Assembly: GCA_049320885.1 (NCBI GenBank)
Contig: JBMORA010000032.1
Coordinates: 1 to 64,000, forward strand
Direction: 5' to 3'
DNA length: 64,000 bases
DNA from: Thermodesulfobacteriota bacterium
GTDB taxonomy: Bacteria > Desulfobacterota > Desulfobacteria > Desulfobacterales > SURF-7
This document shows, piece after piece, positions 41,396-63,994 of the stretch. The translations under genes and the position numbers were made by a program. Under the pieces are notes generated by a model. That model worked only from the letters and a program-made list of their open reading frames with translations, did no database searches and was not told where the DNA came from. Numbering within the stretch: position 1 is the first letter of the stretch; each line of letters starts with the position of its first letter.

Positions 41396-41428
41396 ATTCG
41401 TAATTCCTAATTCGTAATTCCTGATTGC
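41396..41428. repeat. Heptamer repeat array ATTC(G/C)TA x4
   Basis: ATTCGTA ATTCCTA ATTCGTA ATTCCTG ATTGC immediately before ATG 41433. Confidence 0.8.
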
Positions 41429-41432
41429 AGTC

Positions 41433-42386
41433 ATGGCCCGTTCCAAGGTTCATCCCACCCATCGATTCGAATCCTGGCAAGTCTGGCCGGGATCGTATCA
41501 CAATCCACCGGCCGACGGAAATTTTCCATTTCCCGGCGACCGTTCCTTCACCATCACCCCGGAAACCCCCATCGCCTCCATGGGTTCGTGTTTTGCGCGG
41601 GAAATCCGCAAGGCGCTCCTGTCGGCCGGGTATCACTACATCACCGAGGAAGCCCATCATCCCGCCGCCATCCATGCCAGCGCTGCCTGGGAGCGGGTAT
41701 ACAACCCCCATTCCATCCGGCAGATCTTCGAGTATACCTTCGAAGAATGGCGGCCGGAGCTGCGCTGGTGGCATTGCCCCCAATCCGGCCAGATCCAGGA
41801 CCCCTATAGGCGGATTATCCTGTATGACAGCCTGGAGACCGCGGAGGCGGATTTTAGCCGCCACATCCTGCATTCCCGCAAGGCCCTGACCACGGCGGAA
41901 GTGCTGATCCTGACCCTGGGACTGACGGAAATATGGCAGGATCAGACCGACGGCGCCGTCATCTGTCTGCCGTCGGGCCCCTATGTGGAGGAGCAGGGCG
42001 ACATGAGCCGGTATCGGTTTCGAATCAGCCGCTATCCGGAAGTCCTTGAAAATCTGGAAAAAATTCACGCCATCATGGGCCGGGTCAATCCCCGGTGCCA
42101 TCTGGTGATAACGGTCTCCCCGGTTCATCTCTGGGCCACTTTCCGCAAGGATAGCGACGTCATCAGCGCCGGCTGCAATTCCAAATCAACCTTGCGGGCT
42201 GCGGCCGACGAATTTGCCGGTCTTCATGACAATGTGACGTATTTTCCGGCATTTGAAATGGCCACTATTTACACCGGCCTCTTGGGGCGAAGCTATTTTG
42301 CCCAGGGAAAGGAAAATTTTCATGTCAACCGGGAAACCGTGGCCTTCATCATGGATCATTTTTTCAAATTCTACAGCCAGCCTTAG
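41433..42386 (+). CDS. GSCFA-domain protein (SGNH-hydrolase-like)
   Basis: Literal SMGSCFA motif; LTLGLTEIW, ITVSPV, SKSTLR, YFPAFE, ENFHV. Confidence 0.88.
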   Translation: MARSKVHPTHRFESWQVWPGSYHNPPADGNFPFPGDRSFTITPETPIASMGSCFAREIRKALLSAGYHYITEEAHHPAAIHASAAWERVYNPHSIRQIFEYTFEEWRPELRWWHCPQSGQIQDPYRRIILYDSLETAEADFSRHILHSRKALTTAEVLILTLGLTEIWQDQTDGAVICLPSGPYVEEQGDMSRYRFRISRYPEVLENLEKIHAIMGRVNPRCHLVITVSPVHLWATFRKDSDVISAGCNSKSTLRAAADEFAGLHDNVTYFPAFEMATIYTGLLGRSYFAQGKENFHVNRETVAFIMDHFFKFYSQP

Positions 42387-42445
42387 GGTCGCTTGAGAAG
42401 TGGCGGCGGAACCCGAACGCAACCCCAACCGGAACGGATACCAAC

Positions 42446-43678
42446 ATGGCGGCGGGATCGACATATAACATTCTGATGTATTCCCATGACACCTACGGTC
42501 TGGGCCATATCCGCCGGACCATGGCCATCGCCGACCACCTGCGGGGACCCAATGTCAACATCCTGATCCTGACCGGCTCCCCCATTGCCGGCCGCTTCTC
42601 TTTTCCGGATCAGGTGGATTTTGTGCGCATTCCCGGAATGATCAAAAAGACCAACGACGAATACCTGCCGATGTCCATCAAAATCGACGCCAGGCAAGCC
42701 CTCGACATCCGAACCAATATCATCACGGCAACCGCCAAAACCTTCCGGCCGCATCTGTTCATCGTCGACAAGGAGCCGCTGGGTCTGAAACGCGAAATTC
42801 TGCCCACCCTGGAATGGATGCGGGAATATCTGCCGGGAAGCCGCACCATCCTCGGTCTGCGCGACATCATGGATGACGCGGAAACCATCCGGCATGACTG
42901 GGAAAAAAAGGACGTGTACCGCATCCTCGATTCCCTGTACCATGAAATCTGGGTCTACGGCCTCCGCGAGTATTATGACCCCATCGCCGAATACGCCATT
43001 CCGGCCGCCGTGAGCGCCAAAATCCATTTCACCGGATACATTCCCCGGCGCAAGGCCGATCCGGCCACCATACAGAAAATAAAGAAAGAATATCCGATCC
43101 GCCCCGGGGAAAAACTCATTGTCGTCACCACCGGCGGCGGCGGCGACGGCTACAAGGTCATGGACAATTATCTGTCCATGATCGAAACCGAAACCCTGCC
43201 GGACAACATCAAGAGCGTTCTGGTGACCGGCCCGTTCATGCCCAAACGGCAGCGAAAATGCATCGACCAACGCGCCCGGCGCTACGGCATCCATTCCCAC
43301 CGGTTTTACCGCAGCATGATCGACCTCATGGCCGCCGCGGACCTGGTGGTCAGCATGGGCGGATACAATACTTCCTGCGAAATCCTGTCCCAGGCCACGG
43401 TTTCCCTGCTGATCCCCCGGGAGGAACCCCGCAAGGAGCAACTGATCCGCGCCCGGGTTTTTCAGCAACATGACCTGGTGGACTATATTCCCTGGTCATC
43501 CCTGACACCGGTCGCCTTGAAACAAAAGGTCATGGCCCTGCTCGAAGATCCGGGCGCCATACGCCGCGCCGTCTCCCGATTCGACATGACCGGCTTCCAT
43601 GTGATGAGGAAACGACTGGCAGCATTCCGGAACGGGCGCTGCCCGGACCGATTGCCTGTCCATCAAGGCACGGGATGA
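42446..43678 (+). CDS. GT-B glycosyltransferase (GT28-C / COG4671-like)
   Basis: YSHDTYGLGHIRR, TTGGGGDG, VSMGGYNT, EQLIRA. Confidence 0.88.
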   Translation: MAAGSTYNILMYSHDTYGLGHIRRTMAIADHLRGPNVNILILTGSPIAGRFSFPDQVDFVRIPGMIKKTNDEYLPMSIKIDARQALDIRTNIITATAKTFRPHLFIVDKEPLGLKREILPTLEWMREYLPGSRTILGLRDIMDDAETIRHDWEKKDVYRILDSLYHEIWVYGLREYYDPIAEYAIPAAVSAKIHFTGYIPRRKADPATIQKIKKEYPIRPGEKLIVVTTGGGGDGYKVMDNYLSMIETETLPDNIKSVLVTGPFMPKRQRKCIDQRARRYGIHSHRFYRSMIDLMAAADLVVSMGGYNTSCEILSQATVSLLIPREEPRKEQLIRARVFQQHDLVDYIPWSSLTPVALKQKVMALLEDPGAIRRAVSRFDMTGFHVMRKRLAAFRNGRCPDRLPVHQGTG

Positions 43679-44988
43679 AAGCAACAAACCGCAACAGGGA
43701 ATCGCGCCCGCAAAAAGCCCCCTCCTTTCCGGTGCTCGGATTGATTCTCAAAGGCTACCCCCGGATTTCCGAAACGTTTATCTCCAATGAAATTCTTGGC
43801 CTGGAACGTCTCGGCTTTCACATCCGCATCTTTTCCATGCGTCAGCCCCGGGAATCCTTTTGCCATGCCAGTGTCCGTAGGATCAGGGCCCGGGCGGACT
43901 ATCTCCCGGAAATGCTGGCGGCGGCCCCCCTGAACTTTTTCACCGCCAATGCGCTTCTGGCCTTTTGCCGGCCGAAGCGCTATGCGGCCGCGTTCATGAC
44001 GGCCCTGCGGCGTTACCGTCGAACCCGCAAAGCCGCGACCTGGAAACACCTGCTCCAGGCCGGGTATCTGGTAAAACGGCTGGCGCCGGACGCCGGCGTC
44101 ACGCATCTGCACGCCCATTTCGCCCATTCACCCGCTTCCGTGGCCATGTTCGCCTCCCTGCTGAGCGGGATACCCTATAGTTTCACCGCCCATGCCAAGG
44201 ATATTTATACGTCGGACCCGGAACAACTCCGGGAAAAAATAAGCCGGGCCAAGATGGTCGTCACCTGCACCGAATACAACCGGCGCCATTTGCTCGCCCT
44301 TTCGGCGGGTATTCATACCCCGATTCACCGCAGCTACCACGGGATCGACACGGGGATGTTTGCACCGGAAAAATCATCGAACCAGCCCCCCGGTCCCCCG
44401 TTCCGGATTCTCACCGTGGCCCGTCTGATTCCCAAAAAAGGCCTTCCGACCGTCTATCACGCAGTGAAACGTATTCAAGAACAAGGACTTGCCGTTGAAC
44501 ACGACCTGATCGGCGATGGCGATGATCGTGACAAAATTCTGGGATTGATCGCCAAGCTGGGCCTGTCGTCCATCGCCCGCTGGCGCGGAACCCTCCCCCA
44601 TCATCAGGTGTTGGAATACTACAAGCGCGCCGATCTGTTTGTCCTGGGTTGTGAAATCGCGCCCAACGGCGACCGGGACGGTATTCCCAATGTCTTGATC
44701 GAAAGCATGGCCATGGGGGTTCCGGTAGTGGCCACAACCGTATCGGCCATTCCCGAACTCGTGGTGCATGGGCGCACCGGACTGCTCGTATCTCCCGGCG
44801 AACCGGAAGAAATGGCCCGGGCCATGACCACCCTTTTGACCGACAACCGGCTGCGAAACACCATCATTTCGGAGGCCCGCCAGGCGGTGCGGAAAAAATT
44901 CGACAACCGGACCCTGATCCATGAAATGGCGGAACTGTATGGCCGCGTCATGGAAACGCGAATCCGAACCGCCAGGCGTTACGGATAG
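43675..44988 (+). CDS. GT4 glycosyltransferase (WcaL-like)
   Basis: YPRISETFI, HLHAHFAH, FTAHAKDIY, ARLIPKKG, DGIPNVLIESMAMG. Confidence 0.9.
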   Translation: MKATNRNRESRPQKAPSFPVLGLILKGYPRISETFISNEILGLERLGFHIRIFSMRQPRESFCHASVRRIRARADYLPEMLAAAPLNFFTANALLAFCRPKRYAAAFMTALRRYRRTRKAATWKHLLQAGYLVKRLAPDAGVTHLHAHFAHSPASVAMFASLLSGIPYSFTAHAKDIYTSDPEQLREKISRAKMVVTCTEYNRRHLLALSAGIHTPIHRSYHGIDTGMFAPEKSSNQPPGPPFRILTVARLIPKKGLPTVYHAVKRIQEQGLAVEHDLIGDGDDRDKILGLIAKLGLSSIARWRGTLPHHQVLEYYKRADLFVLGCEIAPNGDRDGIPNVLIESMAMGVPVVATTVSAIPELVVHGRTGLLVSPGEPEEMARAMTTLLTDNRLRNTIISEARQAVRKKFDNRTLIHEMAELYGRVMETRIRTARRYG

Positions 44989-45000
44989 AAGGGGCGGGCC

Positions 45001-45645
45001 ATGGGAATGGACGGACCGCCGGGAACGACTTTCGGCCTGCTGCGACACGGTCAAACCATCTGGAACCGGGAGGGACGGATTCAGGGGCAAGACGATTCTC
45101 CCCTGTCCCCGGAGGGTGAACGCCAGTGCCTTGCCTGGGGAAAACGCCTGCGGGAATTCCCATGGGAAAGAATCCTTGTCAGCGATCTGGGGCGGGCCCG
45201 CCGGACCGCCGACCTGGTCAACGAATCCCTCGGTGTTCCTGTCACCGTGGATCAGCGCCTGCGGGAGCAGGACTGGGGCCGCTGGAGAGGGTTGACCCTC
45301 CGGCAGATCACCACGGACAGCGCGGACGAACTGGAACGCCAGGTCAACGCCGGCTGGCATTTCCGCCCTCCGGACGGGGAAAACCGGCTTCACCTGCTGG
45401 AACGCAGCCGACTGGCGCTGGCGGACGCGGCCAGGCAGTATGAAGGTCAGACCATCCTGGTGATCACCCACGAGGGGGTTATCAAGGCCTTGCTGAACCG
45501 GCTCAGCAACCGGATGTTTCTGCCGGGGGAAGGCCCGCTGATGGAGCCGCTGCATCTCCATTTCCTCCGGCACGACGGCCGGGAACTCCATCTGCTTCAA
45601 ATCAACGCCGTTCCGCTGAAAAATGCGGAAACCGACACCGGGTGA
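45001..45645 (+). CDS. Histidine phosphatase (phosphoglycerate mutase family)
   Basis: LLRHGQT, SDLGRARRTA, LREQDWG, ITHEG. Confidence 0.9.
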   Translation: MGMDGPPGTTFGLLRHGQTIWNREGRIQGQDDSPLSPEGERQCLAWGKRLREFPWERILVSDLGRARRTADLVNESLGVPVTVDQRLREQDWGRWRGLTLRQITTDSADELERQVNAGWHFRPPDGENRLHLLERSRLALADAARQYEGQTILVITHEGVIKALLNRLSNRMFLPGEGPLMEPLHLHFLRHDGRELHLLQINAVPLKNAETDTG

Positions 45646-45690
45646 GCATCCCCGGCAACGCTGGACTCCGACCATATCCCCACCGCCAGG

Positions 45691-46857
45691 ATGAAAATTC
45701 TCCAATATTGTCAATATATTCTCGGAATCGGACACCTCTGCCGCAGCCTGGAAATCAGTCGCGGCTTTGCCGGGCATGACGTGGTTCTGGTCACCGGCGG
45801 CCGGGATTTCCCTGTCGCTCTTCCGGAACGGGTGCGCGAACACCGGCTGCCGGCCCTGGTGATGGACGCCGAATTCAGCGGACTCAAAACTCCCGACCAG
45901 AAAAGATCCCTGGAGGCCATCAAGCTCCTGCGGCGGGCGCGCCTGACGGAAATCTTTCAAGCGGAAAAACCGGACGCGCTGCTGGTGGAGCTGTATCCCT
46001 TCGGACGCAAGGCCTTTCGTTTCGAGCTCGACCCGCTGCTGGAAGGCATCCGCAACGGAAGCCTGCACCGCTGTCTCGTTTTTTGCAGTCTGCGGGACAT
46101 CCTGGTGGAAAAGGACAATTCCCGGAAGCACGAGCACCGGGCCGTGGACATCCTCAACCGGCTGTTCGACGGCCTGCTGGTGCATGCCGACCCGGACCTG
46201 ATACCCCTGGACCGGACCTTTTCCCTGGCGACCGACATCGCCATCCCCCTGGACTATACCGGCTTCGTCTGCCCCGGCCCCTCGGCTCCCGCCGGGCTCA
46301 GGGCCCGGCTGGGAATCAGTCCCCGGGAAAAATGGATTGTCGCCAGCGCCGGCGGCGGGCAGGTGGGCGGCCCCCTGCTGACGGCCGTCATGGAAGCCGC
46401 CCGAAAACTGGCGGCGGACATACCTGTCCGGCTGCAGGTCTTTACCGGTCCGTTTCTGAACCAGCTGGAATATCAACTCCTGTCGTCCGGCCGGAATCAT
46501 CATATCCGCGTCCAGCGGTTTACGGACCGCTTTCCGGCCTACCTCGCGGAAGCCGACCTGTCCATCAGCATGGCCGGCTACAACACCTGCATGAACATAC
46601 TGGCCGCCGGGATTCCAGCCCTGGTCTGGCCTTTTCCCCAAAACCGGGAGCAACGCCTGCGGGCCGAAGCCCTGGCGGACCGGGGACTGCTCGGTGTCCT
46701 TTCCGAAACGGATCTGTCGGCTGACGGCATGGCCAATCGGATCCGGCAGGCCCTGAACCAGGGCCGTCCACCCGCAACCACGCTCCGGATCAACGGAGCG
46801 GAGGAGACCCGCCGTGTCGTGGAGGAACGGATCCGGAAACGGGAGGCCATTGCATGA
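45691..46857 (+). CDS. GT-B glycosyltransferase (second COG4671-like paralog)
   Basis: YCQYILGIGHLCR, SAGGGQVG, ISMAGYNT, EQRLRA. Confidence 0.88.
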   Translation: MKILQYCQYILGIGHLCRSLEISRGFAGHDVVLVTGGRDFPVALPERVREHRLPALVMDAEFSGLKTPDQKRSLEAIKLLRRARLTEIFQAEKPDALLVELYPFGRKAFRFELDPLLEGIRNGSLHRCLVFCSLRDILVEKDNSRKHEHRAVDILNRLFDGLLVHADPDLIPLDRTFSLATDIAIPLDYTGFVCPGPSAPAGLRARLGISPREKWIVASAGGGQVGGPLLTAVMEAARKLAADIPVRLQVFTGPFLNQLEYQLLSSGRNHHIRVQRFTDRFPAYLAEADLSISMAGYNTCMNILAAGIPALVWPFPQNREQRLRAEALADRGLLGVLSETDLSADGMANRIRQALNQGRPPATTLRINGAEETRRVVEERIRKREAIA

Positions 46858-47696
46858 CGCCCGGCGTTTCAGCCCTCTGGCGCAAGCCCCTCCCGAAGGA
46901 TCTCGCTTCCCGCCTGGATGAAAGGCTGAGCCGGGTGCTGGGACGGAAAGACCGCCGCCGTCCCATCCAGGTTTTTTTCAGGGCCGACGATATCGGAGTT
47001 CCCGGCGAGCAGGTTTACCGGTTGATCCGCCTGTTCCTGAAATACCGCAGCCCCCTGAACCTGGCCGTGGTGCCGGCATGGCTGACGGCGCCCCGGTGGC
47101 GGAAACTCCGGGAAGCGGGGGCAGCCCATCCGGAACTCTGGTGCTGGCACCAGCATGGATGGCGGCATGTCAACCATGAACCGTCCGGAAAAAAGCAGGA
47201 ATTCGGCCCGGCCAGATCCCGGCACCGTATCCGGAAGGATCTGGCCGCCGGGTTCCGCCGGCTGGAAGAACTGCTGGGAAGGGATTTCACCCCGGTTTTT
47301 ACCCCCCCGTGGAATCGCTGCAGCAGAGAAACCATCGCCGTACTGTCGGAACTCGGGTATGCGGCTTTTTCCGCAAGCCCCGCTGTCTCCGAAGGATCCC
47401 CGTTTGCGGAGCCGTTGCCGAATTTTTGTGTTCAGGTGGACCTGCACACCCGCAAGGAATCCCGGGCGGACCGGGACTGGATAGCGCTGCTGGCCGAGCT
47501 GGAATCCGCTCTTTCCCAGAACCGCTGCGGAATCGTCATCCATCACCGACGGATGAACGACCAGGCTTTCCGGTTTCTGGAAACACTGCTGGAGCGTTTT
47601 GCCTTTCTGCCGGAAATCCGCATCCACCGCTTTACCGACATGCGGCGCATGGCCGCGCCGCCGTTTCCGGAGATGAAGGGGACCCCATCATGGTGA
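46854..47696 (+). CDS. Polysaccharide deacetylase family protein
   Basis: FFRADD, HQHGWRH, FTPPWNR, IHH metal and catalytic motifs. Confidence 0.82.
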   Translation: MTPGVSALWRKPLPKDLASRLDERLSRVLGRKDRRRPIQVFFRADDIGVPGEQVYRLIRLFLKYRSPLNLAVVPAWLTAPRWRKLREAGAAHPELWCWHQHGWRHVNHEPSGKKQEFGPARSRHRIRKDLAAGFRRLEELLGRDFTPVFTPPWNRCSRETIAVLSELGYAAFSASPAVSEGSPFAEPLPNFCVQVDLHTRKESRADRDWIALLAELESALSQNRCGIVIHHRRMNDQAFRFLETLLERFAFLPEIRIHRFTDMRRMAAPPFPEMKGTPSW

Positions 47697-48379
47697 ATGC
47701 TGCGGAAACCCCGCACCCTGCCGACCGCGCCGACCGTCTTCTGGCCCTGCCCTTCGGCAAATCCGTCGCCATCGCCTTTCAAAGCATCCGGGTCCGCTTT
47801 CTGCGCTCTGCCATCACCGTGCTGAGCCTGGTTCTGGCCATCGCCTTTTTCTGTTTTCTGCGAATCAACGCCGACATCGCCGGCGGCATGCTGAAAACCG
47901 GAAATCCCGCCTTGCGGCTGGCCCTGGCGCGGGCCGGCCATGATGTCTCGCCGGACGCCGTCCGCATCGACAACACCCCGAAGCAGAAATGGATCCTGTT
48001 TCTGTCCCTCCTGGTCTGCGTGGTGGGGATTGTCAACGCCCAACTGATGGCGGTCAGTGAACGCATCCGTGAAATCGGCACCATGAAGTGTCTGGGAGCC
48101 CTGGACCGTTTTATCCTGCGCCTTTTTCTTCTGGAAGCCGGCATGCAGGGGCTTGCCGGAGCCGGTCTTGGAGCCGTTGCCGGAACCCTCGCCGCGGTGG
48201 GGAGCAGCCTGATTCGTTTCGGATGGCCGGCCATCCAAGCCCTTCCCGTTCAACAGGCGCTGAAATCGTTCCTGATCTCCATTGGCATCGGTCTTGTTCT
48301 GAGCCTCCTGGGGGTCGTCTACCCGGCCGCCAAAGCCGCCCGGATGCAGCCGGTCGACGCCATGCGCCGGGAGCACTAG
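47690..48379 (+). CDS. Small FtsX/MacB-type ABC permease
   Basis: RFLRSAIT, GIVNAQLMAVSERIREIGTMKCLGA, YPAAKAARMQPVDAMR; start at ATG 47690. Confidence 0.85.
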   Translation: MVNAAETPHPADRADRLLALPFGKSVAIAFQSIRVRFLRSAITVLSLVLAIAFFCFLRINADIAGGMLKTGNPALRLALARAGHDVSPDAVRIDNTPKQKWILFLSLLVCVVGIVNAQLMAVSERIREIGTMKCLGALDRFILRLFLLEAGMQGLAGAGLGAVAGTLAAVGSSLIRFGWPAIQALPVQQALKSFLISIGIGLVLSLLGVVYPAAKAARMQPVDAMRREH

Positions 48380-48420
48380 ATGGGATAGGCAGCCCCAAGG
48401 TGAAAGGTGAACAAACCGCC

Positions 48421-49182
48421 ATGACGGCTTCTCCGACCGATCGGCAAATCATCGTCCGCTTGATCGCCGTAACCAAGCAGTTCAAGCTGGGCAATATCGA
48501 GCTTCCGGCCTTGAAAGGCGTCGACCTGGAGATCGCAAAGGGCCGCTACATCTCCATCATGGGGCCCTCCGGTTCCGGGAAGAGCACCCTTTTCAACATG
48601 ATCGGCGGTCTCGACAAGCCCACTGCCGGGAAAGTGTTCATCGACGAGGTGGACATCGCCCAGCTGGACGCCTACGAGCTTGCCTGGCTGCGCTGCCGCA
48701 AGATCGGTTATATCTTCCAGACCTTCAATCTGATCCAGGTAATGACCGCCCTGGAAAATGTGACCCTGCCCATGATTTTTGCCGGAATGCCGGGGGAGCA
48801 GGCAACGAACAAGGGCATGGAACTGATGAAAATGGTAGGCCTGGACGACCGTTTCCGCCACAAGCCCAACGAACTCTCCGGCGGCCAGCAGCAACGGGTG
48901 GCGGTGGCCCGGGCCCTGGCCAATGATCCCGCCATCATTCTGGCCGATGAACCCACCGGAAATCTCGATCTGGTTACCGGCGAGGAAATCATCAATCTCC
49001 TGAAACGCCTCAGCGAGGAACGCAGCGTCACCATCATATCCGCCACCCATGATTTCAAAATGCTGAATGTGTCCGACCAGGTGGTCTGGATCCGTGACGG
49101 CCGCATCGAGAAAATCGAAAACCGCGCCGAGCTGTCCATCTCCATCGGCCAAATCGATTCGCGTCCGCATGAAAAGGCCTAA
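48421..49182 (+). CDS. ABC ATP-binding protein (LolD/MacB family)
   Basis: GPSGSGKST, LSGGQQQRV, ILADEPTGNLD, ATHD; start at ATG 48421. Confidence 0.93.
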   Translation: MTASPTDRQIIVRLIAVTKQFKLGNIELPALKGVDLEIAKGRYISIMGPSGSGKSTLFNMIGGLDKPTAGKVFIDEVDIAQLDAYELAWLRCRKIGYIFQTFNLIQVMTALENVTLPMIFAGMPGEQATNKGMELMKMVGLDDRFRHKPNELSGGQQQRVAVARALANDPAIILADEPTGNLDLVTGEEIINLLKRLSEERSVTIISATHDFKMLNVSDQVVWIRDGRIEKIENRAELSISIGQIDSRPHEKA

Positions 49183-55988: not shown

Positions 55989-55992
55989 AAAA

Positions 55993-56225
55993 CAATTACG
56001 AATTAGGAATTACGAATTACGAATTGTGGTATTCTATCAATTTGGATACCATACGGATGTATATTCGGAGCCGACCTTCGTTCGTAATGGTTTTCATCGC
56101 CTTCAGCGGAAAAATCAAAATTGAAATTGACAGCATGCCTTCATTCGTAATTCCTAATTCCTAATTCGTAATTGAAATTGACAGCATACCTTCATTCCTA
56201 ATTCGTAATTCGTAATTCGTAATTG
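55993..56225. repeat. Inverted heptamer-repeat arrays plus a 51-bp tandem duplication
   Basis: (AATTACG/AATTAGG)n at 55994-56025; reverse-complement arrays at 56143-56225; near-identical 51-bp units start at 56119 and 56170. Confidence 0.85.
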
Positions 56226-56230
56226 CTTTT

Positions 56231-58186
56231 ATGGATCGTGAGTTAAAAGAATACCGCGACCTCCTGACGGTTCCGGACCGCTTCGAGGAGGGCTTTGACT
56301 GGAAAACCGTCATCGGCGCGGTCTTCATCGGTTTTCTGATGATGCCCGGAAGCATGTACCTGCAGCTGATGATCGGTACCGGCATCGGCCCGGCGGCCCG
56401 CTGGGTCACCATTATCCTGTTCGCCGAAATCGCCAAGCGCGCCTATACGGAAATCAAGCGCCAGGAAATATTCCTGCTGTATTACATGGCCGGTGCGGCC
56501 ATGGCCTCGCCCTTCCAGGGACTTTTGTGGAGCCAATACCTCGTGCAATCGGACGCGGCCCGCATGCTCGGCCTTGCGGAATTCATTCCGGCATGGGTGG
56601 CCCCCCCGCCGGAAACCGCCTCCCTCCTGGAGCGAACCTTTTTTCACCGCGACTGGCTGATTCCGATCCTGCTGCTGGTGGGTTCCCAGCTGATTCAACG
56701 CATTGATCATTTCGGGCTCGGCTATGCGCTGTACCGGCTCACTTCGGATGTGGAAAAACTGCCCTTTCCCATGGCTCCGGTGGGAGCCCTCGGCACCATG
56801 GCCCTGGCGGAATCCACTGAAGAAAAGGAAACCGGCTGGAAATGGCGGGTGTTTTCCATCGGCGGCGTGATCGGCCTGGCCTTCGGCGGAATCTATGTCC
56901 TGCTGCCGGCGGTTTCCGGACTGCTGTTGATCGAACCCATTCGTCTGATTCCCCTTCCCTGGGTGGAATTGACCCGCTACACCGAGGGCCTGCTGCCGGC
57001 GGTGGCCACCGGGATCCAACTCGACCTGGGGCTGGTGTTCATCGGAATGGTGCTCCCCTTTTGGGCGGTCATCGGAGGATTGGCAGGGCTTTTCATCACC
57101 ATCCTTCTGAATCCCATTCTCCACCATCACGGCATCTTGCGCAGATGGCACGAGGGCATGGGGACCGTGGACACAGTCTTCGCCAACAATTTCGACTTTT
57201 ACATGAGTTTCGGAATCGGCCTGGGCCTGGCCATCGCCTTCGTCGGCGTCTTTTATGTGGTGAAATCCTTTCGGCAGGATCCGGGCGCTCCAAGGGGTTC
57301 CCTGAAAGACCTGCTGAAAACGCATCCCGGACGCGGCGATATCAGCATCTGGATCTCCCTTGCCATCTATCTGCTATCCACTCTCGCCTATATCGCCCTT
57401 TGCCGTCTGCTGGTGCCGAATTTCCCCTGGATTTTTTTCCTGGCCTACGGTTTCATCTATACGCCTGTTCTGTCCTATATCACGGCCCGAATGGAAGGCA
57501 TCGCCGGACAATTCGTCAGCCTGCCCATGGTGCGGGAAATCAGCTTTATCGCCGGCGCCAAATATTTCGGTTACCAGGGCATTGAAATCTGGTATGCCCC
57601 CATTCCCATCCACAATTACGGCGAGGCGACGGTCCACTTCCGTCAGATCGAACTCACCGGAACCAGCATCCGCGGCATCATCAAGGCCGAACTGGTGGTT
57701 TTTCCGGTGGTGATTATCGCCGGCCTCCTGTTCTCCCAGTTTATCTGGCGGCTGGCGCCGATTCCTTCCGCGGCCTATCCCTATGCCCAGGAGTTGTGGC
57801 ATTTGCAGGCCCTGAACTCGCTGTTGATGCAGACCTCGACCCTGGAAGGCAATTCCTTGTTTCTGCAATCCCTGACCGGCAACTATGTCCTGGCCGGGCT
57901 GGGATTCGGCCTGCTGGCCTACCTCCTGTTGAACCTGATGGGCCTTCCCGTGCTGCTGATCTACGGGATTATCCGGGGCCTGGGGCAGACCACCCCCCAC
58001 GGCATGCTGCTCGAAGTCGTCGGCGCCTTTCTGGGGCGCTTCTTTTTCCTGAAACGGTACGGCGCCATGTGGCGGCAATACGCGCCGGTTCTGCTGGCGG
58101 GTTTCTCCTGCGGCATGGGACTCAGCGGCATGTTCGCCATGGGATTCGCCTTGATCGTCAAATCCCTGACCCGCATGGCCTATTGA
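56231..58186 (+). CDS. OPT-superfamily-like 'peptide transporter' membrane protein
   Basis: About 16 hydrophobic segments; QE motif after the early TMs; EKLPFPMA resembles the OPT-family LxFP motif. Confidence 0.7.
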   Translation: MDRELKEYRDLLTVPDRFEEGFDWKTVIGAVFIGFLMMPGSMYLQLMIGTGIGPAARWVTIILFAEIAKRAYTEIKRQEIFLLYYMAGAAMASPFQGLLWSQYLVQSDAARMLGLAEFIPAWVAPPPETASLLERTFFHRDWLIPILLLVGSQLIQRIDHFGLGYALYRLTSDVEKLPFPMAPVGALGTMALAESTEEKETGWKWRVFSIGGVIGLAFGGIYVLLPAVSGLLLIEPIRLIPLPWVELTRYTEGLLPAVATGIQLDLGLVFIGMVLPFWAVIGGLAGLFITILLNPILHHHGILRRWHEGMGTVDTVFANNFDFYMSFGIGLGLAIAFVGVFYVVKSFRQDPGAPRGSLKDLLKTHPGRGDISIWISLAIYLLSTLAYIALCRLLVPNFPWIFFLAYGFIYTPVLSYITARMEGIAGQFVSLPMVREISFIAGAKYFGYQGIEIWYAPIPIHNYGEATVHFRQIELTGTSIRGIIKAELVVFPVVIIAGLLFSQFIWRLAPIPSAAYPYAQELWHLQALNSLLMQTSTLEGNSLFLQSLTGNYVLAGLGFGLLAYLLLNLMGLPVLLIYGIIRGLGQTTPHGMLLEVVGAFLGRFFFLKRYGAMWRQYAPVLLAGFSCGMGLSGMFAMGFALIVKSLTRMAY

Positions 58187-58223
58187 AAAACAGTCACAAC
58201 CGACCCATCGGAGACAACCGAAG

Positions 58224-58829
58224 ATGAAAACAACCCTGCCGGTCATCCCGCTTTTCCTCATCCTGATCGCCGTCACCGGTGATTGTCAGGATATCCCCCG
58301 CCAGGTTGGCGGCTTTATCCTGGGAACCGACATCCGCCAGTACCGGAACCGCCTCCGGGAAACCACCGCCATGCCCGTTCGTTATAAGGCCTATCTCGTG
58401 GAAATCGAAATCCGTCCGGATGCCTATTTTAAAAGCGGCCTGATCGCCTATGGAACCTGCGACCAATCCGAAAAAATCCTTCGCATCCGGCTGAAATACC
58501 GGGACGGCAGCCGGACGTTTTACGAGCAGCTGCTGGAACGCCTGAAAAAACGTTTCGGGGAGCCGGTTGAATGGCGGGGCGACCCGTTTCAAACCGTCCT
58601 GGCCTGGAAATGGTCCTTCATCGACCGGCAACAAAACGCCGTCAGCCTGACCTTGCAGCACAATACCAAGGACAAGGAACAAAAACTGGGCAATTCCATC
58701 AAATTGACCCTGACCAGTCAGATTCGGAAAGAACAGGCCTGCCATCAGGCGCGGGCAGCGACACCCGTGGACCCGCCCATCCCTTCCATCTCCGGTCCTG
58801 TTGATTGGCGGCTGCTCATTCCGGAATGA
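58224..58829 (+). CDS. Hypothetical exported protein
   Basis: N-terminal hydrophobic signal; co-oriented; ATGA overlap with the next gene. Confidence 0.7.
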   Translation: MKTTLPVIPLFLILIAVTGDCQDIPRQVGGFILGTDIRQYRNRLRETTAMPVRYKAYLVEIEIRPDAYFKSGLIAYGTCDQSEKILRIRLKYRDGSRTFYEQLLERLKKRFGEPVEWRGDPFQTVLAWKWSFIDRQQNAVSLTLQHNTKDKEQKLGNSIKLTLTSQIRKEQACHQARAATPVDPPIPSISGPVDWRLLIPE

Positions 58830-59725
58830 ACACAACACATTCCGACTGGCTTGAAACCGCCTGGAACGGCATCCGTTTCCGCAGGCCGCCCCACTGGGAA
58901 ATCACCCGCATCGGCAACCAGGACCTTCTGCTCGCGGATGAGGAAGGCCCGGTCCTGGAAATCAAATGGGGGCCGGCAAGCGGAACTTTTTCCCATGACG
59001 CCCTGTTGAAGCGGCTTGCCCTGAAACATCGGCTTCATGGGCCACCCGGTTTTTCGGCGATTCCGGTCCCCGAAGAATGGGTGCAGGGGCTCCGACGGTT
59101 TCGTCTGTCCGGCTTCGAATGGCGCGACGGGACCACCGGCGGCCGGGGGGTGATTTTTGATTGCCCCCGCTGCTCCAAGGCAGGCCTGATTCAGTTCATT
59201 CATCGGCCCAACCGGAACCATTTCCCGGATATTTCCTCCAATGGGATTTCCACGACCCTGCTGGCCTCTTTCCGCGATCATTCCGAAGACGGCCGGAACC
59301 TGTTTGCCTTGTACGACATCCGGCTTGTCGTGCCGGAAGCCTTCCGACTGCACAGCTACCGTTTTACCGCCGGGGCTTTCGAATTGCACTTCCGGCACCG
59401 GCGGATATCCCTGACCTTCTATCGCTGGGGACTGGCCGGTTTGCGGCTGGCGGGCAACGATCTGGCGCTTTTCGGCAGGAAGATTTTCGCCGTTACAAAC
59501 CCCGTGACCCAGGAAAACCGGTCCGCAACGGAAGAATCCGTTGAATGGCGACTCGCCGCCCCACCCTGGTGGTCACGCCTGATTTCCAAGGCTCCCTTTC
59601 AGCAATGCCGCTTGCGGTACATTGAATCCCGGGATCGCATCCTCGGCGTCCGTATCACCGGGAAACAACCCATAAACGACGGGATTTTCAGGCAACTCAC
59701 CCAGGATTTTACCCTTGTTCCGTAA
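58826..59725 (+). CDS. Hypothetical protein
   Basis: ATG 58826 overlaps the previous TGA; Trp-rich with one CPRC; its end overlaps the PqqD-like gene start. Confidence 0.7.
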   Translation: MNTTHSDWLETAWNGIRFRRPPHWEITRIGNQDLLLADEEGPVLEIKWGPASGTFSHDALLKRLALKHRLHGPPGFSAIPVPEEWVQGLRRFRLSGFEWRDGTTGGRGVIFDCPRCSKAGLIQFIHRPNRNHFPDISSNGISTTLLASFRDHSEDGRNLFALYDIRLVVPEAFRLHSYRFTAGAFELHFRHRRISLTFYRWGLAGLRLAGNDLALFGRKIFAVTNPVTQENRSATEESVEWRLAAPPWWSRLISKAPFQQCRLRYIESRDRILGVRITGKQPINDGIFRQLTQDFTLVP

Positions 59726-60104
59726 AACCCAACCACCCCCGATAACGCACCGCCAGGCCCTGGAGTGCCGACCGATCCGCAACGCGGAAGTCGTCACTTC
59801 GCACCTGGAATCGGGCGCGGCCCTGCTGACGTATCCCGTTCGCCCAAAGCCCTGGCTCGCGGCCCTGGTGCGGTTGGGGGCGCGCCTGTCGCGGGACAGG
59901 TCCGGAGGAGGGAACCGGTCCGGAAAACTGGAGCTGGATGGATTGGGGACAGCGGTATGGGACATGGTGGACGGACGCCGATCGGTCCGGGAAATCGTGG
60001 AGCAATTCACCCGGCAGCAACGCCTGCATCCCCGCGAGGCGGAAATCGCTGTCACCCGTTTTCTGCGGGAACTGGGCAGACGCGGCATTATCGGGCTCGG
60101 CTGA
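59715..60104 (+). CDS. PqqD-family (RiPP recognition element-like) protein
   Basis: LELDGLGTAVWDMVDGRRSVREIVEQF...AVTRFLRELGRRGII matches the PqqD winged-helix pattern; TTG start. Confidence 0.8.
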   Translation: MFRKTQPPPITHRQALECRPIRNAEVVTSHLESGAALLTYPVRPKPWLAALVRLGARLSRDRSGGGNRSGKLELDGLGTAVWDMVDGRRSVREIVEQFTRQQRLHPREAEIAVTRFLRELGRRGIIGLG

Positions 60105-60116
60105 CGGATCAGCCCC

Positions 60117-60467
60117 TCACGGCGACACCAGTTTCCCGAAAGCCAGGATGCCATCATCGACGGAACCGGTGATGGGCAGAAAGGTGTCAAAACCCGAAAT
60201 CTCGAACACTTCCTTCACATAATCCTGCATGGAGCAGAGAACCAGTCCCCCGTTCCTGCGCTTCAAATCCTTGGCGGCTTTTAAAATCACCCGCAGCCCC
60301 GCGCTGGAGATATAATCCAGCCCACCGAAATCGATGGCCACTTTTTTTTCGCCGGATTCGATGGCGCCGAAAACAGCCGCCTCGAAATCCGCGGATGAGT
60401 TGGAATCCAAGCGCCCGGCTATCTGAAAAATGACGATGTCCCCCCGCCTGGTCTGAGTGATCTCCAT
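60117..60467 (-). CDS. STAS-domain anti-sigma-factor antagonist (RsbV/SpoIIAA-like)
   Basis: GRLD, DFGGLDYISSAGLRV (phosphoacceptor Ser), VFEISGF. Confidence 0.93.
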   Translation of the reverse strand: MEITQTRRGDIVIFQIAGRLDSNSSADFEAAVFGAIESGEKKVAIDFGGLDYISSAGLRVILKAAKDLKRRNGGLVLCSMQDYVKEVFEISGFDTFLPITGSVDDGILAFGKLVSP

Positions 60468-60487
60468 TTTCTCTCCTTACTTACCGG

Positions 60488-60976
60488 TCAATCCGTTTCC
60501 TCATTTGCTTTTCGTCCTGTTCGGGTCGCATTCTGTTTGGTCCCTTTTCCGGCGCATTCCGCCAGAAGGGATTTTTTCATTTCCAGGATATTGGTATCCC
60601 GGCAACGCCGATAATGCAGATGGTCCATCATGTGCTTCACCAGATGAAGCCCCATGCCGCCGATGGACCTTTCCGTCAAACCACAGCTCACATCCGGCGC
60701 TTCGCAACTCAGGGGGTTGAAGGGGATCCCATTGTCCTCGATTTTGATGGCCAGGTCGTCCCCTGAGCGGGACAGAGAGAAACGAACGGTTTTCTCCCCG
60801 CAATTTCCACAGCCATGGGAGATGATATTGGTAAAGAGTTCATCCAGGACCAGGTTGATCATCCATACCGCTTTGGGCGGCAACCCCGCCCGCCGGCCGA
60901 AACCGTGGAGCCTGCGTCTCAGACGCTCCAGTTCGTTCAATCGGCAATGTAAAGTGAATGTCCTGGAATAGTTCAT
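60488..60976 (-). CDS. Anti-sigma-factor Ser/Thr kinase (RsbW/SpoIIAB-like HATPase)
   Basis: LDELFTNIISHG, IEDNGIPFNP, GGMGLHLV; start set to ATG 60976. Confidence 0.9.
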   Translation of the reverse strand: MNYSRTFTLHCRLNELERLRRRLHGFGRRAGLPPKAVWMINLVLDELFTNIISHGCGNCGEKTVRFSLSRSGDDLAIKIEDNGIPFNPLSCEAPDVSCGLTERSIGGMGLHLVKHMMDHLHYRRCRDTNILEMKKSLLAECAGKGTKQNATRTGRKANEETD

Positions 60977-60984
60977 ATTTTCCC

Positions 60985-61512
60985 TTACACGAGAATCGCC
61001 CCCATGCGGCCGATGCATTTCTCGCAGGCGTCGCCATGCTCCACCAGAAACCGCTCTTCCCAGGCCCGGATGCGATCGATCATCGCCTGGAGAACCTTCG
61101 GTTTCAATTCAGGAAACTGTTCCATCGCCAGGGTGAATTTTTCCCTGGTGATGATGAGGCACACCAGTTCCGACGTCGCTTTCAAGGTATACAGCTGCCT
61201 AAGTTTTCCCAATAACGCCAGTCCTCCCAGAAAAACCCCCGGACCGTATTCACGCACCTGTTTTTCCTTTCCGTCCACAGCCCGAAATATCCCCGCCTTT
61301 CCCGTAACGATATACATCCCCCGGTCGATATCCTCGTATTCATGAAACAGGACATCCCCTTCCCGGTATGCTTCCCGATTGCACAGATAGGCGAACACCT
61401 TGATCATCTCCATCGGCATTTGGGCGAAAAAGTTAATCTCCCGCAGAACACCCAGGTTCTCCTGGAATTCACAGGCTTCGCAAACATCATTTGTTACCGT
61501 GTACGAGTTCAT
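60985..61512 (-). CDS. Stand-alone cyclic-nucleotide-binding-domain protein
   Basis: LREINFFA, YREGDVLF, MYIVTGKA, PGVFLGGLALL; no HTH. Confidence 0.85.
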   Translation of the reverse strand: MNSYTVTNDVCEACEFQENLGVLREINFFAQMPMEMIKVFAYLCNREAYREGDVLFHEYEDIDRGMYIVTGKAGIFRAVDGKEKQVREYGPGVFLGGLALLGKLRQLYTLKATSELVCLIITREKFTLAMEQFPELKPKVLQAMIDRIRAWEERFLVEHGDACEKCIGRMGAILV

Positions 61513-63994
61513 GGAGCACCCCGCGCTGATGAAGAAGTTGGTCGTACGTTCCCATTTCCACGATCTTCCCTGCCTTCATGACGGCTATTGTATCATAATT
61601 CCTCACAATGTCGAGCCGGTGGGCCACGGAAATCACCGTCGTGTTTCCCCGCAGGCGGGTTTCCAGCATGTTCTGAATCCGGGCCTGGGATTTGTTGTCC
61701 AGGGCCGCCGTGGCTTCGTCCATCAACAGGTATTTCGGTGATTTCAAAAGCACCCGGGCCACCGCCAGCTTTTGCCGCTGGCCGCCGGAAAGATTCTCGC
61801 CCTTGTTGCCCACCCGGTACTGCAGTCCGATGGCGATCATGGGTTCCAGCATGTCCTCTTCGATCAGCAGATGAACGATCTTTTGGCTGATTTTTTCCTG
61901 AACCCCGGGGGCATTGCTTTTGGGCTTGCCGAAAAGAATATTGCTGAGAATGGTCTGGGAGGGAAGATAGGTCGCTGGCTGAAAGGAAGAAAACGCCTCC
62001 GGATTCCGTTTCATCACGCTATCCCGGAACAAGGCGCGGCCTTCTAGAAGCTGCTTTGTTAAAGCGCCGGTCAGGGCCGCCATCTTGTGTTTCCCCGGGC
62101 AAAACCGCAAACCCAGCGCCAGCAGCATGCGCTTATCCGGTTCCGCCGCCTGGCGCGGCGGCGTATCCTTTACTCGCCCGATCAGCTCCTTGTAAGCCCC
62201 CAATTCGTCCGCCGCAATGGGACTCTGCTCAAAGAAGGCGGCTTCCGGAGGCAGATTTCCGAGGATATCCACCGTCCGCGCGGCAAGCCCGTAACCCAGG
62301 TTCAGCAGGGGCGAAAGCAGGCCCGCCTGTTCCAGAAATGCCACAAAATCATCTTGTTTTTCCAGCATCCAGGGATCAAAATCCGGCGAATGGGAGACGC
62401 CGAAAATAATGTTTTCCGCCACGCTTGAATAATACAGGTAATTTCCATCATGAAAAAACTCCACGTATTCGGCCAGACCCTGTCCAAAATCCTGTTGAAA
62501 ATGCTTCCGCATTCGGATCAGCAGTGACGCCATGTCACCGTGCCGCGCCCGGTCCAGCATGGCGTTCAAACCGAAATGCAGCACATCCACGAACAGACCG
62601 ACCTGCTGCAGAATCGCGATCATCCGATCCAGATTGGGCAGGGGGTTCTCCTCCCCCCCCCATCCGGCGGCCTTGCAGGCATACAACAGATTGTCCTCGA
62701 TGCTTCCGACGAAAATAAACGGGGCCTGGGAAATGATGCCGACGTTATCGACCACATCCTTTTTCGAAAGGTCGGCGACATCCCGGTCATCCAGCAGAAT
62801 CTGCCCCCCGGAATACCGGAACAGCTGGCCGATACACTGAACCAGCGTGCTTTTCCCGCTGCCGGAGAAACCGATCAGCGCCAGATGTTCCCCGGGCCGG
62901 AGATTCAGGGAAACGTCGTCCAGCAGCCGAACGCCGTCTTCCGTGGAAAAAGAAAGCCGGTTGATGTGTAAACGGCCTTCAAACCGGTATGGGGGCCGCT
63001 CCGGAGAGGTCAGCCGGAATTCCGGTTCACCCCGGAAATATTCCATGGTCCGGCGGTACCGCACGGAGGCGTCCTGGTACACCTGATAAAACTCGATCAA
63101 TTCCTTCCAGGGGTCGTACAATTTTTCCTGGGCGGATAAAAAGGCGACCAAAGCGCCCAATTCCAGGCGGCCGCGCATGGTCAGATAGCCGCCGAGCACA
63201 AAAACGACCAATGGTCCCAAACTGCTGAACAAATTATTCACGCTCTTGACGCCGAACAGGAACGCGTTCCAGACGATCCGGATTTTCTGCAGACGGACCA
63301 CCAGATCCCGGTATTTCCGGTTTTCCACGGTAAAAGCGCCGTTCCCCTGGATCTCCTGAATACCGCTGACGGATTCGGCGATCTTTCCGGAAAGATCCCG
63401 GGAGATATCCACCCGCCGCTTGTTTTGACGATTGGCTCCCTTTTGCAGCAGCGGCACCAGTACCAGCACGATGGGATAGATGGCCAGCGAAATGGCCCCG
63501 AGGAGCGGATTCAGCCACACCAGATAGCCGGCAAAGGCCATCAGGGTCAGGATATTGACGATGGGGGTGGCCAGGGCCATTCCGGCGAAATTACCCGCGG
63601 TGCTCAGCTCCGTCAGCAGAAAGGATACCACTGTCCCGGGCTGGGTTCTGCGGAAAAACGAAAGCGGAAGAACCAGGATGTGCTCGAACAGGGCCAGCCG
63701 CATTTCCCTCAGGGCCCGTTCGCCGATGACCGCTTGCAGCAGGTTGATCAGGTATTTGAGGCCGGTTGCGATGACGACGGCCGCCAGGTAAATCCCGCAG
63801 TAGATGGCCAGCAGCTCCATCTGGCGGAATTTGATGGCTTCGTTGACAATGCGTTTCTGCATTTCCAGCGGGATCACCCTGGCGAATACCGTGATCATGA
63901 TGATCAGCAGGAGCAACAGCTGCAGCCTCATATTCGAAGCAAAAGCCCATGATATCAATGATCTTTCCGTTACGGGAGGCTCTTTTTTTCCCAT
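61487..63994 (-). CDS. Fused ABC exporter (TMD plus NBD) with a large insertion in the NBD
   Basis: Six-TM-type membrane domain; GFSGSGKST, Q-loop IISQAP, then ~270 extra aa before LSGGQRQK, LLMDE, VAHRL. Confidence 0.9.
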   Translation of the reverse strand: MGKKEPPVTERSLISWAFASNMRLQLLLLLIIMITVFARVIPLEMQKRIVNEAIKFRQMELLAIYCGIYLAAVVIATGLKYLINLLQAVIGERALREMRLALFEHILVLPLSFFRRTQPGTVVSFLLTELSTAGNFAGMALATPIVNILTLMAFAGYLVWLNPLLGAISLAIYPIVLVLVPLLQKGANRQNKRRVDISRDLSGKIAESVSGIQEIQGNGAFTVENRKYRDLVVRLQKIRIVWNAFLFGVKSVNNLFSSLGPLVVFVLGGYLTMRGRLELGALVAFLSAQEKLYDPWKELIEFYQVYQDASVRYRRTMEYFRGEPEFRLTSPERPPYRFEGRLHINRLSFSTEDGVRLLDDVSLNLRPGEHLALIGFSGSGKSTLVQCIGQLFRYSGGQILLDDRDVADLSKKDVVDNVGIISQAPFIFVGSIEDNLLYACKAAGWGGEENPLPNLDRMIAILQQVGLFVDVLHFGLNAMLDRARHGDMASLLIRMRKHFQQDFGQGLAEYVEFFHDGNYLYYSSVAENIIFGVSHSPDFDPWMLEKQDDFVAFLEQAGLLSPLLNLGYGLAARTVDILGNLPPEAAFFEQSPIAADELGAYKELIGRVKDTPPRQAAEPDKRMLLALGLRFCPGKHKMAALTGALTKQLLEGRALFRDSVMKRNPEAFSSFQPATYLPSQTILSNILFGKPKSNAPGVQEKISQKIVHLLIEEDMLEPMIAIGLQYRVGNKGENLSGGQRQKLAVARVLLKSPKYLLMDEATAALDNKSQARIQNMLETRLRGNTTVISVAHRLDIVRNYDTIAVMKAGKIVEMGTYDQLLHQRGVLHELVHGNK

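Follow-up and report, generated by a model that had tools for sequence, protein, structure and literature searches.

The window analysed here, a stretch of 64,000 nucleotides from a Thermodesulfobacteriota bacterium (positions 1 to 64,000 of contig JBMORA010000032.1, assembly GCA_049320885.1), carries at 41433-63994 a locus in which glycosylation and export genes are joined to a membrane module made up of a type VII ABC transporter and two OPT-related proteins. Judged by sequence comparison, the glycosylation genes and the exporter are homologs of a genetically described but chemically uncharacterised cluster of Sinorhizobium meliloti, called here the PPP cluster after the protective polysaccharide (PPP) proposed as its product, and so are not new. 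The new element is the membrane module as partner of such PPP-like genes, in the slot where rhizobia have an Opp importer. With slightly less than even confidence, the PPP-like genes are read as building a short glycan that the exporter exports and that the module probably retrieves from the periplasm.

The two halves of the locus are inherited together. Genomes were sampled from the phylum (251, host genome included) and from the order of a Desulfovibrio caledoniensis genome (101), and in both samples OPT2 (56231-58186, plus strand) and the exporter (61487-63994, minus strand) occur in identical sets, 16 of the 251 and 17 of the 101. Only three or nine candidates were scored per genome, the exporter cut-off was E<=1e-75, with the best matches of the positives all <=2e-171, and a few of the negative genomes are common to both samples. 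A RedA-like glycosyltransferase (GT), often unlinked to the other parts, is present in all 16 phylum and all 17 order genomes with the system; weaker matches came from three further phylum genomes (G052, G109 and G216; 34-37%) and a weak one from the order (G471). The match between OPT2 and exporter persists where the parts lie far apart or on separate contigs, and in some genomes the exporter is co-directional with and close to the module genes, so the link does not reduce to a single fixed order of genes. It is very likely that the module and the glycosylation and export genes serve one function. An earlier reading made from the sequence alone (the sequence-only reading) had supposed that the two arms of the locus form one system; profiling upholds this in part, for the exporter and its cyclic-nucleotide-binding (cNMP) domain partner, and not for the RsbW/RsbV partner switch.

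The arms are 14 plus-strand open reading frames (ORFs; 41433-60104) and four minus-strand ones (60117-63994), all intact and convergent, with 12 nt between the end of the PqqD gene and the STAS gene. This layout agrees with the sequence-only reading, whose gene labels are backed by Pfam and NCBIfam (the deacetylase below cut-off). Plus-strand genes are spaced by -14 to +59 nt, the sole exception being a 242-nt gap between OPT1 and OPT2. The locus is flanked by gatB on one side and queA/tgt on the other, both oriented outward; because queA and then tgt, identified by eye from their translations, are the genes found beyond 64 kb, the locus is complete within the window. OPT2 is carried by 9 of 40 relatives, most of which conserve the plus-strand order to their contig ends, and the arms adjoin and converge in four of the nine, with four families represented. 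Since gene order and convergence recur in this way, the arrangement is not due to chance.

In several relatives gatB also adjoins the locus, which points to vertical inheritance and thereby favours another account, that the module is a general importer of nutrients (peptides, metal chelates or oligosaccharides) hitch-hiking with glycan genes in this phylum; so does the fact that it stands alone in loci seeded by Poribacteria and Lentisphaerae proteins. This account is nonetheless quite unlikely, as presence is patchy within families (one of six genomes in family f42), but OPT2 and exporter share one distribution in each of the two samples, and the matching genomes include many with the parts on different contigs or far apart.

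Homologs of the rhizobial PPP cluster

When 72,556 plasmid records were searched at the protein level, 266 matched the exporter and 274 the first GT, with nearly equal counts per genus (142 and 143 in Rhizobium, 80 and 80 in Sinorhizobium). In three annotated rhizobial plasmid loci the genes run GT-GT4-GT-exporter-cNMP in one direction, in a cluster that also holds an Opp-type importer and a nucleotide-sugar dehydrogenase; adenylate cyclases occur in two of the three, as does a deacetylase with a further GT4. In the Rhizobium etli annotation the GT and GT4 at the head of this string bear the names redA and redB. Matches on S. meliloti pSymB were assigned by coordinates to SMb21264 (837171-838169), SMb21265, SMb21266 and SMb21269, and by position to SMb21253 (also by product name) and SMb21270. 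These lie within the PPP cluster (smb21252-smb21271, with redA/redB; PMC10128002).

Their counterparts in the window keep the rhizobial order of GTs. A RedA homolog of the GT-B type (42446-43678; SMb21264, COG4671; Glyco_tran_28_C, 41% identity), which is a core gene, is followed by a RedB-like GT4 (43675-44988; SMb21265, 38% over 410 aa; PF00534, Glycos_transf_1) and, after an inserted histidine phosphatase (45001-45645; PF00300, His_Phos_1, E 1e-50, RHG and THEG motifs), by a second COG4671 enzyme (45691-46857; SMb21266, 36% over 392 aa; Glyco_tran_28_C). Next comes a CE4-like deacetylase (46854-47696; SMb21253, 31%) with Asp-Asp and His motifs and a weak Polysacc_deac_1 match. All these lie on the plus strand. 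The phosphatase has no counterpart in four rhizobial loci. On the minus strand lie the core type IV ABC exporter (ABC_membrane and ABC_tran; SMb21269, 27% over 755 aa) and, overlapping it by 26 nt, a stand-alone cNMP-domain protein (60985-61512; cNMP_binding; SMb21270, 26%); the pair adjoins in 47 fetched loci. As rhizobia run GTs, exporter and cNMP gene as one string, these two of the four convergent genes belong with the glycosylation genes. The exporter has intact motifs, a type IV exporter fold and, like its rhizobial counterpart, a long insert, which here enlarges the ATPase domain by about 255 residues. A whole-chain structure search assigned no fold to the insert, which is likely a docking site for the cNMP protein.

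A homolog of SMb21252, a GT4 with 34% identity, lies on another host contig (C63:183025-184140) and sits within the cluster in several relatives. With a third COG4671-like GT it forms a satellite pair (C63:183025-185306, also fetched as L043:11025-13306) that likely belongs to the same pathway; the pair adjoins a glutaminyl-tRNA synthetase-like gene. SMb21256 has only an unlinked 35% homolog in the host genome. Compared with the PPP cluster, the locus is without the Opp importer, adenylate cyclase, lyase, FkbM methyltransferase and nucleotide-sugar dehydrogenase, and it adds the histidine phosphatase, the type VII ABC/OPT module and RsbW/RsbV.

What the rhizobial genes do is known from genetics. 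Travin et al. 2023 (PMC10128002) report that S. meliloti needs nine genes of the smb21252-smb21271 interval for fitness under phazolicin. The locus holds homologs of five of these nine, and contig C63 that of a sixth, SMb21252; these six show transposon-sequencing log2 fold changes of -3.5 to -5.4 under phazolicin, and in two PPP insertion mutants the minimum inhibitory concentration falls from 1.47 to 0.18 ug/ml (PMC10128002). Insertions in SMb21270 trend upward (+1.1 to +3.1 at five sites, not significant; same source). Furthermore, seven of the nine are reported as up-regulated under myxobacterial attack (PMC10315480). Targets of Clr lie at nodP2-smb21248, adjoining but outside the PPP genes, so this study (PMC5498481), as far as available, does not demonstrate that cAMP controls PPP.

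Standard exopolysaccharide synthesis does not describe the locus. Among 22 ORFs scanned with Pfam and NCBIfam, no Wzx, Wzy, Wza, radical SAM, YcaO or nucleotide-sugar family was matched, as the sequence-only reading had noted, and a Wzx/Wzy-type locus was rejected because neither a priming transferase nor a flippase, polymerase or Wza/Wzc was found among them. The broader proposal of that reading, glycan synthesis with handling across the envelope, is strengthened by the PPP homology and the co-inheritance, and the product is probably a glycan or glycoconjugate. Clusters in relatives hold variable tailoring genes (L025:6700-8751, L017:9891-11701, L063:12554-13522 and L035:9578-10189) for an ArnA-like formyltransferase/epimerase, an O-methyltransferase, a radical SAM/SPASM protein and a DOT1-like methyltransferase, hinting at lineage-specific decoration. 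A second type of COG4671 cluster, with GT4s and a shorter ABC protein, occurs at L066:1117-9068 (there with two APH-family kinases as well) and L065:5776-15653, in genomes without the OPT module. Two of the extra RedA-like matches, in G052 and G109, lie beside a shorter ABC protein (in G052 with APH-family kinases) and were set aside as a different cluster type.

The type VII ABC and OPT-fold module

The motor of the module is encoded by three plus-strand genes: a mini-FtsX permease (47690-48379; PF02687) with three hydrophobic segments and no large periplasmic domain, a LolD/MacB-type ATPase (48421-49182) in which every motif is intact by NCBIfam and motif check, and a giant subunit of 1604 aa (49169-53983; M28, MacB_PCD and FtsX in Pfam). 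The giant combines a degenerate M28/PA ectodomain, a transmembrane bundle, a MacB periplasmic core and FtsX. Across an alignment of 70 homologs EAFYDS, GADEA, GHAQ, LHLSS and WGTP replace the usual metal ligands of the M28 head, judged against the canonical motifs of the five-ligand dinuclear zinc site; neither the two His ligands nor the Glu-Glu pair is retained, and an active M28 peptidase was rejected on these grounds. Since Asp, Glu and His are conserved at other positions, the head may hold another kind of metal site. The N-terminal 944 aa gave nothing significant in a search of Protein Data Bank (PDB) sequences, the best match being an aminopeptidase at E 0.1. Like LolCDE, MacB and FtsEX, the motor pairs a MacB/LolD-type ATPase with two unlike FtsX-domain subunits and a MacB periplasmic core; unlike them, it has one subunit from which a periplasmic domain is absent and another that is longer by about 900 residues, the degenerate M28 domain among them, and the locus holds no MacA, TolC or LolA gene.

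The two OPT-related proteins follow on the same strand. OPT2 has no Pfam match of its own, and its profile gave nothing significant in PDB sequence searches. Its AlphaFold2 model (pLDDT 90.5) has the OPT/Yellow Stripe fold, matching barley YS1 (7wst) over the whole chain (Foldseek E 2e-11, TM-score 0.63, 14% identity) as the sole match at E<=0.001, and 24 of 50 OPT2 family members match PF03169 (OPT). By profile comparison OPT1 (53976-55988), a DUF6785/DUF6784 protein in Pfam, is a distant full-length paralog of OPT2 (hhalign 97.9%, E 5e-13, 580 columns); searching the OPT2 profile with the single OPT1 sequence gave no match, and profile-profile comparison was needed. The pair thus resembles OPT/Yellow Stripe-like transporters through the fold of OPT2 and the profile homology of OPT1, and differs from them in being two diverged paralogs tied to an ATP-driven module. 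Five OPT2 homologs (P0122, P0123, P0129, P0130 and P0131) are 860-1080 aa long with a best match that ends near residue 350-540, which suggests a large insertion or fused domain. Tandem 7-nt repeats lie at 55990-56225 in the gap between OPT1 and OPT2 and recur at 41402-41422, before the GSCFA gene; with 53 strand-wise matches of at least three units genome-wide, this is probably a dispersed intergenic repeat.

Three smaller plus-strand genes complete the arm. Hyp1 (58224-58829; 201 aa), with a hydrophobic N-terminus and two Cys that are invariant in alignment, is likely periplasmic; hyp2 (58826-59725) is soluble and was assigned to the module by co-occurrence. Neither belongs to a Pfam family nor gave anything significant in PDB sequence searches. 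Last is a PqqD-fold protein (59715-60104; PF05402). The genes for the giant, OPT1, OPT2, hyp1, hyp2, PqqD, STAS and RsbW proteins are each single-copy in the host genome (E<=1e-8).

How far the module extends was seen in wider searches. Eighty GTDB loci nearly all carry titles of deltaproteobacterial lineages. Of these, 50 have at least 9.5 kb upstream of OPT2, where OPT1, the giant and the ATPase were each found in 49 and mini-FtsX in 48; 46 have at least 8 kb downstream, with hyp2 and PqqD in 34 each, exporter and cNMP gene in 27 each, and STAS and RsbW in 26 each. A record titled Acidobacteriota (L142/G290) holds the module (77% in OPT2) and an exporter (51%), by transfer or mis-binning. 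A metagenome scan seeded with Poribacteria- and Lentisphaerae-type OPT2 gave 80 loci, 46 of them at least 9 kb long, among which 38 have an OPT2 38-50% identical to that of the window (flanks <=10 kb). In these divergent loci the giant is present in 28 and PqqD in 17, and two hold a single weak GT match. Coupling of the module to glycosylation genes is thus a finding for Desulfobacterota only. Hyp2 and PqqD stay with the module there and so belong to it, and its cargo may differ elsewhere, given that all 38 are without an exporter neighbour. No account of an FtsX/M28/OPT module was found in the literature searched, with subscription journals and bioRxiv supplements outside that search. The claim of the sequence-only reading to an undescribed system is not supported for the PPP-like genes.

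Accessory and regulatory genes

The sequence-only reading, which listed an orphan PqqD-like gene, had entertained a glycopeptide as product; a related account is a glycosylated ribosomally synthesised and post-translationally modified peptide (RiPP). In this account PqqD would recruit a precursor peptide for decoration by the GTs, secretion through the exporter and import, whole or as fragments, by the OPT pair. The RiPP recognition element (RRE) fold is genuine (TbiB1, E 1e-7), OPT proteins carry peptides, the best Foldseek match of the exporter is the PCAT1 core, if among near-equal general exporters, and radical SAM/SPASM genes lie near the locus in some relatives. Even so, the account is very unlikely. 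PqqD is present in 24 of 32 genomes with the system and 0 of 28 others, but it was not found in the remaining eight or in four rhizobial loci, and it stays with the module where glycosylation genes are absent (17 of the 38 divergent loci). The exporter has no C39 peptidase match in Pfam. Among short ORFs near 85 PqqD genes, the six largest clusters look by eye like shadow frames of neighbouring genes. An RRE-dependent RiPP locus was rejected, as no maturase family or convincing conserved short ORF was found, remote precursors lying outside the search; the PqqD-like gene belongs to the membrane module and not to a RiPP pathway.

The partner switch consists of an RsbV-like STAS protein (60117-60467, minus strand; Pfam STAS) with its Ser motif (YISSAGLR) and an RsbW-like kinase (60488-60976, minus strand; HATPase_c_2) with its kinase boxes. 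Across the phylum sample, 35 of 251 genomes hold an RsbW homolog, split between 9 of the 16 with the system and 26 of the 235 others, and RsbW does not lie beside the exporter in families f103, f67 and f54 or in genome G232. The switch is therefore a lineage add-on, and its role as a core part, as first supposed, was rejected for lack of co-inheritance across the phylum. Sigma-independent partner switches over polysaccharide production are reported for Vibrio SypE/SypA (PMC10120452) and the Anabaena Hep module (10.64898/2026.04.08.717354). As reported for those cases, a kinase and a STAS-only protein stand beside glycan genes, and SpoIIE phosphatases sometimes adjoin RsbW and the exporter in relatives; unlike them, the switch is not co-inherited with the system and the locus holds no phosphatase of this kind, the host SpoIIE homologs lying on contigs C12, C46 and C9.

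Second-messenger control, also part of the sequence-only reading, has become doubtful. The phosphate-binding cassette of cAMP and cGMP receptors, Gly-Glu...Arg, is not intact in the cNMP protein of the window, where Gly-Gly replaces Gly-Glu and the Arg region is retained; because the binding Glu is thus lost, control by cyclic nucleotides appears doubtful for this locus. At this position 29 of 47 aligned homologs have Gly and six Glu. The latter include both genomes of family f54, which have a cyclase nearby, and four rhizobial proteins likewise keep Gly-Glu, in contrast to the degenerate motif here. At the other end of the locus, a GSCFA-family SGNH-like hydrolase (41433-42386, plus strand; PF08885, E 1e-46) occurs in 3 of 32 system genomes; it was rejected as a core part and counts as accessory. 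Outside the window, near the end of the same contig, lies a 669-aa Ser/Thr-kinase-like ORF of odd composition (C32:105770-107779).

Proposed export and retrieval, and the direction of transport

The chemistry of the proposed pathway we infer throughout, whereas gene content, homologies, folds, motif states and co-inheritance are observed. The three GT-B enzymes of the locus and the fourth GT4 on contig C63 would add sugars to a small acceptor in the cytoplasm, with no polymerase. Two further steps are proposed: dephosphorylation of the acceptor by the phosphatase and removal of an N-acyl group by the CE4-like enzyme. A short, defined glycan is favoured because no polymerase stands alongside and the GTs have no predicted membrane spans except one marginal segment, and the presence of a histidine phosphatase next to the GTs suggests that the acceptor is phosphorylated, as it is in compatible-solute pathways. 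The exporter would move the product out, tuned by a cNMP-domain protein that has probably lost nucleotide sensing here. Next, the non-catalytic M28 head of the giant may capture the product, which the FtsX pair, working in strokes powered by ATP, would pass on to OPT1/OPT2 for uptake, with hyp2 and the PqqD-fold protein acting as putative cytoplasmic adaptors. RsbW/RsbV may add stress control in some lineages.

Retrieval is favoured mainly because rhizobial Opp and the OPT-fold proteins of Desulfobacterota are unrelated families of the uptake type that occupy the same slot; YS1, for instance, is an importer. Whether the module works inward is nevertheless evenly balanced. The bolder proposal is of a new class of bacterial transporter, an OPT-fold heterodimer that a type VII ABC motor, bearing a pseudo-peptidase receptor head, would power or gate, and that would here complete a cycle of export and retrieval for a PPP-like glycan; it is rather unlikely.

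Several observations weigh against retrieval of a PPP-like product. The known type VII ABC transporters export, extract or signal and are not known to import. Identities to the rhizobial proteins are only 26-41%, and the host genome gave no match to the lyase (SMb21259) or the methyltransferase (SMb21271) of the PPP cluster (single-sequence queries, E<=1e-10), so the locus is counted as a PPP-like variant and not as a PPP member. No exporter was detected in two OPT2-positive genomes that are 73% and 60% complete, the exporter was present in two of four OPT2-positive relatives tested, exporter and cNMP gene occur in 0 of the 38 divergent metagenome loci (flanks <=10 kb), and the genomes in the co-inheritance counts are kin, not independent. 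The PPP polysaccharide itself is called speculation by its authors, and no phenotype under phazolicin is seen for SMb21260-62, Opp genes of S. meliloti, in the available data (PMC10128002); by analogy the module would serve a dispensable step, yet it is never missing in the exporter genomes sampled.

This last point suits the opposite direction. There, a lipid-linked glycan flipped by the exporter would be drawn out of the inner membrane by a LolCDE-like action of the type VII ABC and placed on envelope acceptors, the OPT pair serving as its carrier or scaffold. The module is present in all 16 and 17 exporter genomes sampled, as an obligatory step would be, the ATPase scores best with the LolD model and mini-FtsX with LolC/E models, and the best NCBIfam model for the exporter is MsbA, though below cut-off. 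Conversely, the locus holds no priming transferase, the divergent loci hold the module without glycosylation neighbours, and OPT2 had no match in the 72,556 plasmid records, rhizobial plasmids with PPP genes included (chromosomes were outside this search). Outward transport is on balance rather unlikely, but it stays a strong rival because type VII ABC transporters are not known importers and the module is never missing.

If retrieval is correct, the type VII/OPT transporter would be a functional stand-in for a binding-protein-dependent Opp importer, and the first clue to a substrate would be at hand for a module that occurs in more than one phylum, indeed in several. In rhizobia the PPP genes confer protection against a peptide antibiotic, and the link suggests a glycan as cargo; one-to-one inheritance in Desulfobacterota ties the question of the PPP product to that of the module's substrate. 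The PqqD-fold protein, used here outside peptide maturation, calls for caution in RRE-based genome mining. Cultured carriers among the GTDB records (Desulfovibrio, Pseudodesulfovibrio and Solidesulfovibrio) make knockout tests of both halves feasible, and the locus extends PPP-like envelope chemistry to sulfate reducers.

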